DNA of 37,587 bases from Acidobacteriota bacterium (lineage in GTDB: Bacteria; Acidobacteriota; Polarisedimenticolia; Gp22-AA2), in NCBI GenBank assembly GCA_041482595.1, contig JBGPED010000003.1:1-37587 (forward strand), in the 5' to 3' direction. A program made the position numbers and the translations under genes. The notes below the pieces were generated by a model that did no database searches, was not told the DNA's origin, and worked only from the letters and a program-made list of their open reading frames with translations. Numbering within the stretch: position 1 is the stretch's first letter; the number at the start of each line of letters is the position of its first letter. Below are positions 1,465-34,850 of the stretch, piece after piece.

Positions 1465-1933
<469 letters not shown>

Positions 1934-20110: not shown

Positions 20111-20203
20111 ATCCTAGCATCCCATCCGGCGCCGGATCAAGCCGAACATCGTCCCGGCAAATGAAGGTCTCTCAAAGACTTTCCGCGACTCGCATGCTAG
20201 AAT
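20111..20203. promoter_or_regulatory. Divergent promoters for the HAD gene (-) and the hem operon (+)
   Basis: - strand TTGATC(20140..20135)-18nt-TAGGAT(20116..20111) with TG extension. + strand TGc-TAGAAT (20198-20203). Confidence 0.55.
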
Positions 20204-20239
20204 CGCGACGTTGCGCCCGCCACCGTGCTCGGAGCCTCG

Positions 20240-21028
20240 ATGGACTGGAGTCTAGTCCTCCTTCGGATCGCCTTGGCGTTCTACTGCCTCGGGTTCATCA
20301 ATTCGTTTCTCCCGGTCCTGGGGCGCGTCAAGACCCAGCGCTTCACGCCCTGGCTCGCCGGCGCCGGCTGGGTCGCGCATACCCTGGCTCTCGTGGCGTT
20401 GGGAGCGGCGCTCAAGCGCTGTCCGCTCGGTACGGTCCCGGAGGTCCTGTCGGCCCTCGCCTGGTGCACCGTCCTGGTCTACCTCGTCGTGTTCTGGCGT
20501 TACCGGATCGAGGTCCTGCACGTCGTCATCCTGCCCCTGGTCCTGGTGGTGCTGTTCGTCTCGGACCTCCTGCCGCAGGACGTGATCCCCGTGACCGCGA
20601 CACTCAGGCCGTCGCTCCGGCGCTTCCACGTCACCGTGATCATCTTCGCCATGGCCGCGCTGTCGATCACCTTCGCCGCCAGCGTGGCGTACGTCCTCCT
20701 CGACCGGGCCCTCAAGAGCAAGCGCCCCGGGCGGTTTTTCGTCAAGCTGCCGTCGCTCGAAAGCTGCGACAACGTCGGCCAGATCTCGCTCCTCTGGGCC
20801 TTCCCTCTGATGACGCTGGGCATCATCACCGGCGCGATGTACAGCGCCAGCATCAGGCACACCTACTGGGCCTGGCAGCAGAAGGAGACGCTTGCCGTGC
20901 TCTCCTGGGTCATCCTGGCGATCGTGGTCGTGGCGCGCCTGGGATGGGGCTGGCGAGGGCGCAACGCCGCCCTTCTCACCATGTTGGCGTTCAGCGTCGT
21001 GCTGGTGCGCATCCTGGGGTTCTACTGA
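20240..21028 (+). CDS. Cytochrome c assembly family (CcsA/HemX-like) membrane protein
   Basis: About 8 TM helices, FHV, LPSLESCD, TLGIITGA, YWAWQQKE, WGWRGR. Located directly upstream of hemA. Confidence 0.85.
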   Translation: MDWSLVLLRIALAFYCLGFINSFLPVLGRVKTQRFTPWLAGAGWVAHTLALVALGAALKRCPLGTVPEVLSALAWCTVLVYLVVFWRYRIEVLHVVILPLVLVVLFVSDLLPQDVIPVTATLRPSLRRFHVTVIIFAMAALSITFAASVAYVLLDRALKSKRPGRFFVKLPSLESCDNVGQISLLWAFPLMTLGIITGAMYSASIRHTYWAWQQKETLAVLSWVILAIVVVARLGWGWRGRNAALLTMLAFSVVLVRILGFY

Positions 21029-21031
21029 GCC

Positions 21032-22378
21032 ATGCCCACCGTTTACGGCATGAACCACGCGAGCGCCCCTCTCCCGGTGCGCGAGAAAGTGGCGTTCCCG
21101 GAGCAGGAGCTGAAGGACGCCATGGCCCGTCTCAGGCAGGCGGACGGCGTGGAGGAGGCGTTCATCCTCTCCACCTGCAACCGCACCGAGATCATCGTCC
21201 ACATGCGACAGGACACGGCCCCCGGCGCGCTCGCGGGTTTCCTGGCGCGCGAGCGCCCGGTGAGCGGGGAGGAGCTGGAGAGGCACTGCTACCTCTACAC
21301 CGAGCGGGAGGCGGTGCGGCACGTGTTCCGGACGGCGGCCTCGCTCGACTCGATGGTGGTCGGGGAGGCGCAGATCCTCGGGCAGGTGAAGGAGGCGTAC
21401 GCCCTCGCGGGACAGGTCGGCTCGCTCGGACCGGTCCTCGACGCCTTGCTGCGGCGGGCGTTCACGGTCGCGAAGCGGGTGCGCACCGAGACCGGCATCG
21501 CCCGGCACCCGGTGTCGATCGCCTACGCCGCCGTCGGCCTGGCGCGCGATATCTTCGGCGACCTCGGCGAGCGCACCGCGATGATCGTCGGGGCGGGGAA
21601 GATGGCGCGCCTCGCCGCGCAGCACCTCGTCGGCAACGGCGTGCGATCGGTCTTGGTGGCGAACCGCTCCTACCAGCGCGCCGACGAGCTGGCGCGCGAG
21701 CTGGGCGGCCGGGCCGTGCCGTTCGACCGCCTGTTCGAGGAGATGGAGAACGCCGACATCGTGATCGCCTCCACCGCGGCGCCGCACCTGGTGATCCTCC
21801 GCGAGCACGCCCAGCAGCTGAGCCGCGCCCGGCGCGGGCGTCCGATCTTCTTCATCGACATCGCCGTCCCCCGCGACGTGGATCCGAAGGTCAACGAGGT
21901 GGACAATGTCTACCTGTACGACATCGACGATCTGCAGGGGGTCGTCCAGGCCGGCCTGGACGAGCGCCAGAAGGAGTTGAAAGTCGCCGAGTCGATCGTC
22001 GAGAGCGAGACCGAGACGTTCCTGTCGTGGATGAAGTCCCTGGAGGTGACCCCCACGATCGTCGAGCTGCGCCGGCGCCTGCACGAGATCGCGGACCAGG
22101 AGGTGGAGCGCTTCAGGAGCAAGCTGTCGGGCCTGACACCCGGTCAGGAGGAGGCGGTGCGGCAGATGGCGGCCTCCCTCGTCAACAAGCTCCTGCATCC
22201 CCCGACCCTGGCGCTGAAGCGCCTCGCCACGCAGAACGGCGCGGGGACGAGGGTCAAGCTGATCCGCGAGATCTTCGGGATCGACCGTCCGGCGGAGGCC
22301 CCGACGGAAGGCGGGACAAACGAAGAGGAGTCCCCTGACGGGACCACCCGGACCTCGTCCCGGGGAGACACCCGGTGA
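21032..22378 (+). CDS. hemA: Glutamyl-tRNA reductase
   Basis: GMNHASAPL..RE, LSTCNRTE, SLDSMVVGEAQILGQVK, GAGKM, DIAVPRDVD, NKLLH.P. Confidence 0.97.
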   Translation: MPTVYGMNHASAPLPVREKVAFPEQELKDAMARLRQADGVEEAFILSTCNRTEIIVHMRQDTAPGALAGFLARERPVSGEELERHCYLYTEREAVRHVFRTAASLDSMVVGEAQILGQVKEAYALAGQVGSLGPVLDALLRRAFTVAKRVRTETGIARHPVSIAYAAVGLARDIFGDLGERTAMIVGAGKMARLAAQHLVGNGVRSVLVANRSYQRADELARELGGRAVPFDRLFEEMENADIVIASTAAPHLVILREHAQQLSRARRGRPIFFIDIAVPRDVDPKVNEVDNVYLYDIDDLQGVVQAGLDERQKELKVAESIVESETETFLSWMKSLEVTPTIVELRRRLHEIADQEVERFRSKLSGLTPGQEEAVRQMAASLVNKLLHPPTLALKRLATQNGAGTRVKLIREIFGIDRPAEAPTEGGTNEEESPDGTTRTSSRGDTR

Positions 22379-22385
22379 CCCGCGC

Positions 22386-23315
22386 GTGAGGGCCATCGTC
22401 ATCGGCAGCCGGGGGAGCCGCCTGGCCCTGTGGCAGGCGGAGTGGCTGAGGAGGCTCCTGCAGGACGCCGGGTGCGACGCGCGCGTCGAGATCATCCACA
22501 CCTCCGGGGACCGCTTCCTGGATCGCTCGCTCGTGTCGATGGGCGGGAAGGGCGTCTTCGTCAAGGAGATCGAGGAGGCGTTGCTCGCGGGGACCGTCGA
22601 TGTCTCGGCGCACAGCCTCAAGGACCTGCCGACGTCACAGCCGGACGGTCTGACGATCGCCTGCCTGCCGGAGCGCGAGGACGCGCGCGACGTCCTCCTC
22701 GCGCCGGGCGCCCCGGGTCCCGCGGGGCTCAGGCCGGGCGCCGTCGTCGGCACGGGGAGCCCGAGACGCTCCTGCCAGATGCGGGCCCTCCGCCCCGACG
22801 TCACGATCAGGGACCTGCGCGGCAACGTCGACACCCGCCTCGCAAAGCTGCGGAAGGGGGATTACGACGCCATCCTGCTCGCCCGCGCAGGCCTTCGCCG
22901 CCTGGACATCGAAGTCGAGGGGACGGTGCTCGACTACGACCAGATGATCCCCGCGGTGGGGCAGGGGGCGATGGCGATCGAGATCCGCGCCGACGACCGC
23001 GAGCTGGCGGAGGTCCTGCGTCCCCACCACCACGCCCCGACGGCGATCGCCGTGGCCGCGGAGCGCGCCCTGCTGCGCGGGCTGGGGGGAGGCTGCCAGG
23101 CGCCCATCGCCGCGTTCGGGGAGGTCGCCGGGGAACGGCTTTCCCTGAGGGCTCTCGTCGCCGGCCCCGGCGGCGAGCCGCTCCTGAAGGAACGCCGCGA
23201 AGGGGATGCCCGGGACGCCGAGGCGATCGGGCTCGACGCGGCCCGGGTCCTCCTGGCGCGCGGTGCTTCGGCGCTGGTCCGGGGGACGTCCGCGCCCCTC
23301 CCCGACGGGCCGTGA
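22386..23315 (+). CDS. hemC: Hydroxymethylbilane synthase
   Basis: GSRGSRLALWQA, GKGVFVKEIE, HSLKD, GSPRR, LRGNVDTRL, PAVGQGA, GGGCQAP. Confidence 0.97.
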   Translation: MRAIVIGSRGSRLALWQAEWLRRLLQDAGCDARVEIIHTSGDRFLDRSLVSMGGKGVFVKEIEEALLAGTVDVSAHSLKDLPTSQPDGLTIACLPEREDARDVLLAPGAPGPAGLRPGAVVGTGSPRRSCQMRALRPDVTIRDLRGNVDTRLAKLRKGDYDAILLARAGLRRLDIEVEGTVLDYDQMIPAVGQGAMAIEIRADDRELAEVLRPHHHAPTAIAVAAERALLRGLGGGCQAPIAAFGEVAGERLSLRALVAGPGGEPLLKERREGDARDAEAIGLDAARVLLARGASALVRGTSAPLPDGP

Positions 23316-33279: not shown

Positions 33280-33308
33280 TTGACCGGCCCCGGGGTCGAC
33301 CCTATAAT
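33280..33308 (+). promoter_or_regulatory. Near-consensus sigma70 promoter for the selenoprotein-cytochrome gene
   Basis: TTGACC(33280-33285)-17nt-TATAAT(33303-33308). A divergent TTGCGC-18-TAGAGT faces DUF3467. Confidence 0.75.
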
Positions 33309-33359
33309 TCCCGGACCCTGCGGCGCATGTGTTCCGGCCGTTTGGACGGGGATGCCTTG

Positions 33360-34850
33360 ATGCGCTCGAGCCGCTCTGCCGCCTTGTTGCTGGTCGTCGT
33401 CGGGACGATCGCCGCTCCGACGGCCGCTCCCCCGGAACAGTCGATCCCGGCGCCGTCGCCGCCGGCCGCCCTGCCTCCACCTCTCCCGGCCGGCCCCGCG
33501 CCCGATCTGGATCTCCTGTTCACCGCCGAGGTGGCCGGTTACGTCGAACCCTGCGGCTGACCGCACAACCCTCGAGGAGGGCTGGCCCGGCGGGCCGGTT
33601 ACCGCAACGTCTTCAACACGAACTACCCGGCCACGCCGATCCTGTGGGCCGACACGGGCGACTTCACCGGCGATCCCACCGAACAGGGGAAGATGCAGAC
33701 CGACGCGCTGATCGAGGGGATGAACGCCCTCGGGTACAAGGTCGCCAACCTGTCGCAGCGGGAGCTGTCGCACGGCTACGACTTGTTCCTCGATCGCCGG
33801 AAGAAGGCGCGGTTCGAATTCATTTCCGCCAACGTCGTGTGGCAGGACACCGGGGAGCCGGTCGCGTCCCCGACGACCGTCGTCCGCGTGCCCCTGCGCG
33901 ACGGCGCCAGGGTGAAGGACGTGCGCATCGGATTCATCGGCCTGACCCGCAACGACCCCGCATTTCAGAAAGAGGGACCCGCGGGCCGGCGCATCGTCAC
34001 GGTGGACGCCCTCGCGGCCGCGGAGAAGCACGTGCCGGCGCTCAAGCAGAAGGCCGACATCGTCGTGGCGCTCGTTGCCCTCGGCCTCGAGCAGGCGCGG
34101 CAGCTGCCGAAGAGGGTGAAGGACATCGATCTCGTCGTCGGCGCCGATTCCACTCCCGGAAGGACCGGGATGATCACGCGCACCGATGATTTCCCCGAGG
34201 ACACGCAGTTCGGCCGCACACGACTGCTCTTCGCCGGAGACCAGGGCAAGGTCCTGGGCGAGGTGCGTCTCTTCTTCGACGCGAAGAGGACGGTCGCCTC
34301 GACGCAGCGGGCCATCATCCAGCTGACCCGTGAATGGCCCGACGATCCGAAGGTCGCCGAGGTCATGGAGCGGGTCAAGGTGGGCATCAACGAGTACAAC
34401 AAGCAGAAGACGCTGGCGGAGAGCCCCTTCGCGGCCCCGGCCGCCACCCCGGCGCCGCAGGAGGCGGCCTTCACCGGCTCCGATCGCTGCGCCACGTGCC
34501 ACGAGAAGGCCTTCGCCGTGTGGGCGAAGAGCGGCCACGCGCGCGCCTTCGAGACGCTGGTGCGCGCGAAGCAGGACTTCAACCCGAAATGCCTCCCCTG
34601 TCACACCATCGGTTACAACCAGAAGGGCGGCTACGTGAACCCCCAGGCGACACCGCTCTTCGAGAACGTGGGCTGCGAAGCCTGCCACGGCCCTTCGAGC
34701 CGGCACCCCGAGCCGATGCAGTCGGGCTACGGCAAGGTTGACGTCTCCTTCTGCGTCACCTGCCACACCCGGGAGAACTCCCCCGACTACGTGCCGGCCG
34801 AGTACATCCCCAAGGTCATCCACTGGGACGAGCCCAAGACCGGCCACTGA
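33360..34850 (+). CDS. Predicted exported selenoprotein: UshA/5'-nucleotidase-like domain with a C-G-U motif fused to a tetraheme cytochrome c (c554-like); in-frame TGA at 33558-33560
   Basis: ORFs ending at 33560 and starting at 33693 share a frame, with only one TGA between them: ..LFTAEVAGYVEPCG*PHNPRGGLARRA..ILWADTGDF... Signal peptide at the N-terminus and four CxxCH motifs at the C-terminus. Confidence 0.85.
33552..33606 (+). promoter_or_regulatory. Candidate bacterial SECIS element
   Basis: Hairpin GGCTGGCCC-GGC-GGGCCGGTT (33580-33600) with a loop G 29 nt after the TGA. Alternative lower stem TGCGG.TGACC/GGTTA.CCGCA. Confidence 0.55.

Follow-up and report, generated by a model that had tools for sequence, protein, structure and literature searches.

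The window analysed here is a stretch of 37,587 nt from an acidobacterium of the class Polarisedimenticolia (assembly GCA_041482595.1, contig JBGPED010000003.1, positions 1 to 37,587 of the forward strand). On its plus strand, at 33360-34850, lies a gene in which an UshA-like N-terminal domain is joined to a tetraheme cytochrome c module and whose frame contains a single internal TGA, at codon 67. As judged from the alignments described below, this TGA is almost certainly the selenocysteine (Sec) codon of a genuine Sec protein. Our overall reading, which we consider probable, is that the product is an exported or membrane-tethered periplasmic UshA-like PCGU selenoprotein with a Cys65/Sec67-heme redox centre.

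The in-frame TGA as a selenocysteine codon

Read directly, the frame opens with ATG at 33360, contains the TGA at 33558-33560 as its sole internal stop and is closed by a second TGA at 34848-34850. The frame, the TGA position and the Pro-rich linker described in an earlier note on this DNA were all recovered in this reading, which gives 496 residues when TGA is taken as Sec (U). The read-through protein starts MRSSRSAALLLVVVGTIAAPTAAPPEQ, passes through the Pro-rich stretch and continues as LFTAEVAGYVEPCG-U-PHNPRGGLARRA...ILWADTGDF, with the local motif E63-P64-C65-G66-U67-P68 around codon 67. The features of the locus, all on the plus strand, are as follows.

33280-33308, +: putative sigma-70-like promoter by consensus match only (TTGACC 33280-33285, 17-nt spacer, TATAAT 33303-33308)
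33348-33352, +: possible Shine-Dalgarno sequence GGGGA, 7 nt before the ATG, as suggested by the sequence
33360-34850, +: coding sequence of the UshA-like tetraheme selenoprotein (496 aa with TGA as U; Sec codon 67; stop TGA 34848-34850)
33360-33431, +: predicted signal peptide or N-terminal membrane anchor (approximately residues 1-24; two Arg and a 13-residue hydrophobic run; cleavage site ambiguous; read from the sequence)
33432-33506, +: Pro-rich linker (approximately residues 25-49)
33507-34424, +: 5'-nucleotidase/UshA-like N-terminal domain of metallophosphatase fold, with linker helix and without metal ligands (approximately residues 50-355; homology to CpdB 5eqv, CD73 and UshA)
33552-33563, +: C65-G66-U67-P68 motif with the Sec codon TGA at 33558-33560
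33570-33580, +: hairpin 1 (4 bp, loop GAG, -2.4 kcal/mol; 13 nt after the UGA; 91.1% paired in 28 TGA sequences)
33581-33599, +: hairpin 2, candidate selenocysteine insertion sequence (SECIS) element (8-bp stem, apical loop GGC at 33589-33591, -13.4 kcal/mol)
33693-33695, +: internal ATG (Met112), giving a 385-aa open reading frame (ORF) if the TGA is a stop
34455-34847, +: cytochrome c554-like tetraheme domain (approximately residues 366-496; PF13435 E 9.4e-17; c554 1bvb E 1.7e-12)
34488-34502, 34590-34604, 34674-34688 and 34752-34766, +: CxxCH motifs CATCH, CLPCH, CEACH and CVTCH

When the read-through protein was compared with related loci by tblastn, a stop was found at column 67 in every orthologue. 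TGA occupies this column in 28 distinct orthologous sequences (the window and 27 others), down to approximately 34% protein identity, within the motif (E/D)-x-C-G-*-(P/K/Q/H), and the protein sequence is conserved on both sides of it. Another 12 related loci carry TGC or TGT at the Sec column, and of 99 representative homologues spanning the column, 98 have Cys and 1 has Trp. In an alignment of 106 full-length proteins, column 67 is Cys or Sec in all 106, and Cys65 is kept in 103. The proposal of the earlier note that the TGA encodes Sec is thus borne out, since the column holds either TGA or Cys. Counted among the 150 listed rows of 404 matches, at least 45 of the 61 genomes of the class have an N-domain match with exactly one TGA (43 of 59 when G023 and G045 are left aside). 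Moreover, the frame upstream of the TGA varies mainly at third codon positions (alignments A2 and A4), so this region is under coding constraint.

If the TGA were a nonsense mutation or a gene boundary, the locus would be a pseudogene or would consist of two genes, an ORF of 66 codons and, after it, an independent cytochrome gene. Gene callers do split the gene in this way. Without read-through, the longest ATG-started ORF is that of 33693-34850, which encodes 385 aa from Met112 and has no signal sequence, as had been claimed before; the top public homologues, P0002-P0004, have the same length. Among the 120 listed public homologues, 117 are truncated to 282-443 aa, with the N-terminus absent and at most 83% of the query covered, and 3 are full length, so the expectation that standard annotation would truncate the gene holds. 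The named truncated homologues are called 'multiheme c-type cytochrome', 'cytochrome c554' or 'hypothetical'. However, the TGA stands in the same column of the 28 distinct sequences with both flanks conserved, the downstream piece has four heme-attachment motifs yet no export signal, and the genome has the Sec machinery. A nonsense or two-gene reading is, on these grounds, hardly credible.

An assembly or sequencing error, or a genetic code (4 or 25) that assigns TGA to Trp or Gly, is weaker still and can be set aside: one representative homologue, P0241, has Trp at the column, but the contigs of four runs list no other letter, the gene's own stop is TGA, selA and selB are open under table 11, and so are the other genes of the window, whose G+C content is 69%. 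The use of TGA as the gene's own terminator and the open frames of the other genes under table 11 exclude the Trp/Gly reading. As for the error, contigs from four public runs of four studies, one of which may be the source sample, span 33558-33560 without an alternative letter listed (X1 record 1, X2 record 9, X3 record 18, X4 record 26), and this agreement meets the earlier concern about a miscalled base. P0241 (341 aa) is the sole representative with Trp at the Sec/Cys column (...CGWPSNPAGG...); a gene caller set to a different genetic code may here have rendered a TGA as Trp.

The machinery for Sec was sought in the source genome, whose assembly consists of 308 contigs and is approximately 80% complete. 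The profile scores were 552.8 bits for selA, 331.6 bits for selB and 367.4 bits for selD, and a tRNA-SeC with the anticodon TCA was found. The selD gene is itself Sec-containing, with one in-frame TGA read as GGUAAK. The search for selA, selB, selC and selD that had been called for therefore found selA, selB, a Sec-containing selD and tRNA-Sec all present. In this selD (L009:1531-1533, G000 contig C25), a hairpin with a GGU loop can be seen by eye approximately 17 nt past the UGA, and the computed minimum-energy fold differs from it.

Examination of 18 loci of the class showed TGA at the Sec codon in 14 and TGC or TGT in 4, and four CxxCH motifs in 16 of the 18. All four Cys-form orthologues of the class (G040, G047, G055 and G059; L058-L061) belong to one family, f9, and each of their genomes has selB, which indicates a lineage-specific exchange of Sec and Cys without loss of the machinery. 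An origin of the Cys forms through lost Sec machinery was ruled out, selB being present in 16 of 16 genomes tested.

A candidate SECIS element was found downstream of the UGA, where RNAalifold predicted two adjacent hairpins from 18 sequences. The bacterial SECIS (bSECIS) constraints given in a 2026 review comprise an apical loop of 3-9 nt, an upper stem of 4-16 bp and a minimum free energy of -7.5 kcal/mol or lower (PMC13188914, Fig. 2 legend), together with 16-37 nt between UGA and apical loop and a G as first or second nucleotide of the loop, with a G or U after it in many cases (PMC13188914). Hairpin 1, at 13 nt from the UGA, is too close for the spacing rule. In hairpin 2, the loop is 3 nt, the stem is 8 bp, the distance from UGA to loop is 28 nt (33561-33588), the energy of 33581-33599 is -13.4 kcal/mol and the loop in the window is GGC, all within the published bounds. 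Across the 28 TGA sequences, the loops are GGC, GGA, GTA or GTC, that is G(G/U)N. Pairing is kept in 94.6% of cells overall and 96.4% in helix 2 of these sequences, compared with 68.1% and 71.9% in the same columns of the 12 Cys-form sequences, a comparison biased towards the structure, which was derived from part of the sequences used to test it. The 3' hairpin that the earlier note had anticipated is thus present, and it is retained more faithfully where the codon is TGA than where it encodes Cys. The pair 42:54 of hairpin 2 (33584:33596 in the window) is never broken in the TGA sequences (GC 21, CG 4, GU 2, UG 1), and the pair 30:36 of hairpin 1 shows two-sided changes in 12 of the 28. The covariation score of the TGA set was reached by 0 of 500 shuffles, although related sequences can beat shuffles without any structure.

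Nevertheless, several observations on the hairpin weigh against our reading, as does the origin of the structure just mentioned. Longer stretches spanning the UGA (45-101 nt) fold with no greater stability than their shuffled versions (z -0.93, -1.0 and -0.29); for hairpin 2 alone, z is -2.11. Much of the complementarity is encoded by the conserved peptide P-x-G-G-L-A-R-R-A-G, which explains why the Cys forms are still 68% paired. Furthermore, synonymous-codon variation falls only modestly over the hairpin (0.54 in the 10-codon window from codon 76, the fourth lowest, against a mean of 0.90). The Rfam scan gave no match at the selenoprotein locus, its only match in the window being RNase P RNA; Rfam is not known to include a bacterial SECIS family. 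Taken as a whole, the pairing pattern makes hairpin 2 a likely, but not proven, SECIS element.

At the N-terminus, the possible cleavage sites precede Pro, so retention as a membrane anchor on a Pro-rich tether is predicted to be as likely as cleavage of a signal. The same type of N-terminus occurs in the orthologues L034 and L039 and in the Cys forms P0119-P0121. The upstream TTGACC-17-TATAAT sequence that had been pointed out earlier was found at 33280-33308, with 11 of 12 consensus matches and 1 site found against 0.1 expected from shuffles.

A phosphatase fold joined to a cytochrome c554-like module

The N-domain is homologous to the N-domains of the 5'-nucleotidases of known structure CpdB, CD73 and UshA (E 5e-23 to 4e-11 with a profile; E 6.5e-14 with a single sequence), and the homology to CD73 continues through the interdomain linker helix to approximately residue 350. 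In contrast to these enzymes, in which the metal and catalytic residues are kept, the metallophosphatase motifs (DxH, GD, GNHE, GH and GGHxH) are not conserved in the window protein and its relatives, and only the G of GD is invariant. In the alignments with CpdB and CD73, G-N-H-E-F falls on S132-Q133-R134-E135-L136, and L-G-H-S falls on L-V-A-L, the His being Ala240. G-G-H-S-N falls on G-A-D-S-T, the His being Asp263, in a segment that is deleted in most orthologues. In these alignments, the metal and catalytic residues of the phosphoesterase are thus replaced. The most conserved feature of the N-domain is instead Cys65-x-Sec/Cys67: in the 106 sequences, the positions conserved to at least 96% are C65, C67, G73, G74 and G100, followed by R77 and R78 at 84-86%.

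The second difference from the 5'-nucleotidases lies in the C-terminal half, where they have a substrate-binding domain and the window protein has a cytochrome. The c554-like module follows the linker helix at the point where the 5'-nucleotidase C-domain would begin, and thus replaces that C-terminal domain. The Pfam family PF13435 matches the module with 62.2 bits against a gathering threshold of 20.8. The four CxxCH motifs start where they had been placed before (CATCH 34488, CLPCH 34590, CEACH 34674, CVTCH 34752) and are invariant in the 106 sequences. Only three extra His residues are conserved (H393 100%, H449 97%, H488 95%), and no Met is. With Nitrosomonas cytochrome c554 (PDB 1bvb, 1ft5), the module shares four hemes and the PF13435 match; the alignment of the two (E 1.7e-12) brings together CxxCH motifs one to three, the His that follows the first of them and the GxxxKGGY stretch. 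c554 itself is a free electron carrier of 211 residues and lacks Sec, whereas the window protein carries the module as part of a longer polypeptide. One heme of c554 is five-coordinate, and we take its counterpart in the window protein to be, by alignment, the CLPCH heme. With its four matches to cytochrome c assembly families, the genome is able to make c-type cytochromes.

The protein appears to belong, fusion included, to a family that is already catalogued. The NCBIfam model NF041198, 'UshA-like (seleno)protein' (UshA_like_PCGU, 519 positions), matches it with E 4.2e-81 when Cys is scored for Sec. Positions 20-271 of the model match the N-domain (111.6 bits), and positions 345-516 match the heme domain (152.8 bits); since both halves match, the curated family already takes in the cytochrome fusion. 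Shared features are the P-C-G-U motif with TGA-encoded Sec, the UshA-like N-domain and the C-terminal heme-binding region. One relative of the class scores 275.1 bits, and by such scores the acidobacterial clade seems to sit at the edge of the model. The family is large, with 616 clusters at 50% identity matching at E <= 1e-30, and the nearest records with a name come from metagenome-assembled genomes that bear the labels Candidatus Polarisedimenticolia or Acidobacteriota, with one Ca. Binatia. NF049981, 'UshA-like (seleno)protein family 2', was matched weakly as well, at 49.1 bits (cut-off 140) and over profile positions 1-91, which surround the motif; a table of the 2026 review lists that family with CxxU, whereas the window protein has CxU (PMC13188914).

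That UshA-like CxU selenoproteins had been reported before, as the earlier note stated, agrees with the NCBIfam entry and the reviews. The table of the 2026 review contains the row 'UshA-like protein, NF041198, CxU' (PMC13188914), a table of a 2022 review also lists the family (PMC9312934), and the 2008 Global Ocean Sampling (GOS) survey gives 'COG0737, UshA-like, CxU' with 76 Sec and 92 Cys sequences (PMC2398784). The table rows and the one sentence devoted to the family in these three papers mention neither a function nor hemes. Two further papers (PMC1976440, PMC1794560) contain no mention of UshA, COG0737, nucleotidase or cytochrome, and the literature search found no account joining selenocysteine, multiheme and nucleotidase. 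What the present analysis adds to the known family is the corrected gene model, the truncation of the public homologues, the loss of the phosphatase site, the domain replacement and the conserved gene position.

A proposed Cys/Sec-heme centre and its alternatives

In the mechanism that we propose, SelB and Sec-tRNA(Sec) would read UGA-67 at the hairpin, and the protein would be exported and receive its hemes in the periplasm. Cys65 and Sec67 are predicted to lie in the loop after the first strand, where nucleotidases hold the DxH metal motif at the interdomain cleft. In this former active-site loop of a phosphatase, they could cycle between the selenol/thiol and the selenenylsulfide state as a redox centre and exchange electrons with the chain of hemes, in which one member may be five-coordinate, like its c554 counterpart. 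On present sequence evidence, we lean only slightly towards such a coupling of the Cys/Sec pair to the hemes. The substrate would probably be a small anionic sulfur or selenium compound (polysulfide, selenite) or a thiol/disulfide; the conserved Arg residues suggest an anion, and any named substrate is tentative at best.

That Sec-heme chemistry on polysulfide and selenite exists is seen from MccSep, a pentaheme selenoprotein which, according to a preprint, reduces both compounds and has its Sec next to a His/Cys-ligated heme (bioRxiv 10.1101/2025.11.18.688581). MccSep/ExtKL (GSU2937-2936; PDB 9wt8) resembles the window protein, as far as described there, in being a periplasmic protein that joins Sec and c-type hemes. 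It belongs to a different family, however: the window protein scores 18.9 bits against NF040886, whose cut-off is 250, and the match to PDB 9wt8 (E 0.0089 over approximately 40 residues) covers the heme motif only. MccSep also differs in having five hemes, no nucleotidase-like domain and a Sec outside any CxU motif. Since MccSep acts on both compounds, the reduction of polysulfide and of selenite is the obvious first assay. A bolder proposal, which we regard as speculative, is that the family might form a second, independently evolved class of heme-dependent selenoenzymes. In it, a Cys-x-Sec loop in a metal-less old active site would be docked to the five-coordinate heme of a c554-type module standing where the nucleotide-binding domain had been. 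The enzyme would act as a reductase of polysulfide, selenite or elemental sulfur or, working in the opposite direction, feed the respiratory chain with electrons taken from sulfide or thiols, as a core periplasmic function of the whole acidobacterial class.

Besides the hairpin, four results count against the overall reading. First, selB exceeded its cut-off in all 16 genomes tested, the Cys-form genomes included. Second, the loci L056 (G052) and L057 (G056) encode TGA-bearing UshA-like CGU selenoproteins of 340-360 residues without any CxxCH, in the same syntenic place beside ruvX, so the Sec domain exists without the heme chain and the heme chain is not obligatory. Third, the score of 273.1 bits against NF041198 lies 1.9 bits under the curated cut-off of 275. 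Finally, the neighbourhood analyses revealed neither a conserved redox partner nor a gene that points to a substrate, the neighbours in the class being housekeeping genes.

The main rival to a redox pair is that Cys-x-Sec acts as a ligand and does not cycle. It would serve either as the sixth ligand of the heme for which no distal His is conserved (His/Cys or His/Sec, as in TsdA, SoxAX and MccSep) or as a ligand of a thiophilic metal or metalloid in the lost dimetal site. We consider this unlikely. The preprint describes a Cys-ligated heme beside the Sec of MccSep (bioRxiv 10.1101/2025.11.18.688581). In the present family, the metallophosphatase ligands have been lost and Cys/Sec gained in the same loop region, and four CxxCH motifs are accompanied by the three extra conserved His residues named above, with no conserved Met. 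Yet, by homology to c554, the lack of a distal His may mean no more than that this heme is five-coordinate. Moreover, the orthologues that consist of the N-domain alone keep CGU without any heme domain, which counts against a purely heme-ligand role.

A working UshA- or CpdB-like nucleotidase or phosphoesterase that merely carries a cytochrome tail is very improbable. It would account for the significant homology to the N-domains of CpdB, CD73 and UshA, but the window sequence has other residues in place of the Asn, the catalytic His and two His ligands, and D-x-H (motif I) is absent in 17 of 17 aligned sequences. The Pfam scan of the protein matched the cytochrome part only, with neither a Metallophos nor a 5'-nucleotidase C-domain (PF02872) match. 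No remaining acidic position reaches 80% conservation: D98 and D101, like R134, are each below this value in the 106 sequences. A distant match of the same fold was obtained to the thiosulfohydrolase SoxB (TIGR04486 E 2.4e-10; PDB 4uwq E 0.0086), with 39.3 bits against a cut-off of 550. SoxB has a dimanganese site, whereas the window protein does not conserve the metal-ligand residues.

For annotation, the gene should be called as 33360-34850 with Sec at codon 67, and most public homologues need the same correction, being recorded as 'multiheme cytochromes' that lack the N-terminus and with it the export signal. The family is large and has a conserved place in this acidobacterial class. What there is to test has been narrowed, as a phosphoesterase role can be set aside and Cys-x-Sec/Cys beside a c554-like heme chain is the invariant feature.

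Genomic context and related genes

In the window, the selenoprotein gene is preceded on the same strand by gcvT, gcvPA and gcvPB, and on the opposite strand by genes for Maf and a DUF4321 protein; it is followed by the genes for RuvX (ruvX from 34908) and YceG/MltG. No terminator-like site was found between its stop and ruvX. Among 19 loci of the class, the gene adjoins the RuvX/YceG cluster in 15, the gcvT cluster in 17 and the gcvP cluster in 12. This conserved order points to a long vertical residence in the class and has no word on the substrate. In 36 diverse metagenome loci, namely those of 80 with enough flank, no neighbour family occurred in more than 5. A Cys-form gene stands beside genes for a cystathionine beta-synthase-like protein (PALP+CBS) and a Cys/Met-metabolism PLP enzyme in 5 of these 36 loci (L083, L099, L123, L132, L135), which may reflect a lineage-specific link to sulfur amino-acid/H2S metabolism or mere synteny. 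In another 5 of the 36 (L086, L120, L124, L127, L147), a DUF1573 Ig-like protein is encoded just upstream, and of 9 long homologues scanned, 3 (P0152, P0169, P0188) have a DUF1573 Ig-like domain fused N-terminally to the module.

DsbB was found in 0 of 21 relatives and VKOR in 13 of 21, the window's own genome included; a role of the selenoprotein as a DsbB replacement is neither needed nor excluded. In the homologue P0154 (1207 aa), a borderline match to a DsbA-like thioredoxin (25.8 bits against 25.6) lies upstream of a CGC-tetraheme module and may be a weak hint of thiol-disulfide chemistry. The listed public runs that carry the locus number 24, with no RNA dataset among them.

The window genome also holds a longer Cys-type paralogue with N-C-G-C (L022, G000 contig C263, match 1480-2280 in the locus). 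Such N-C-G-C paralogues are open frames of approximately 760-1080 residues with the same N-domain and c554-like modules, and relatives were seen in L033, L035-L037, L042, L046 and L047; the paralogue of L033 has one in-frame stop within the matched range. Elsewhere in the window, a heme-related cluster lies on the plus strand at 20201-23315 (CcsA-like cytochrome c assembly protein 20201-21028, glutamyl-tRNA reductase HemA 21029-22378, porphobilinogen deaminase HemC 22263-23315). The RNase P RNA is of class A and full length (1470-1932, plus strand, 249.5 bits), and overlaps the start of a long minus-strand ORF at 43-1914.

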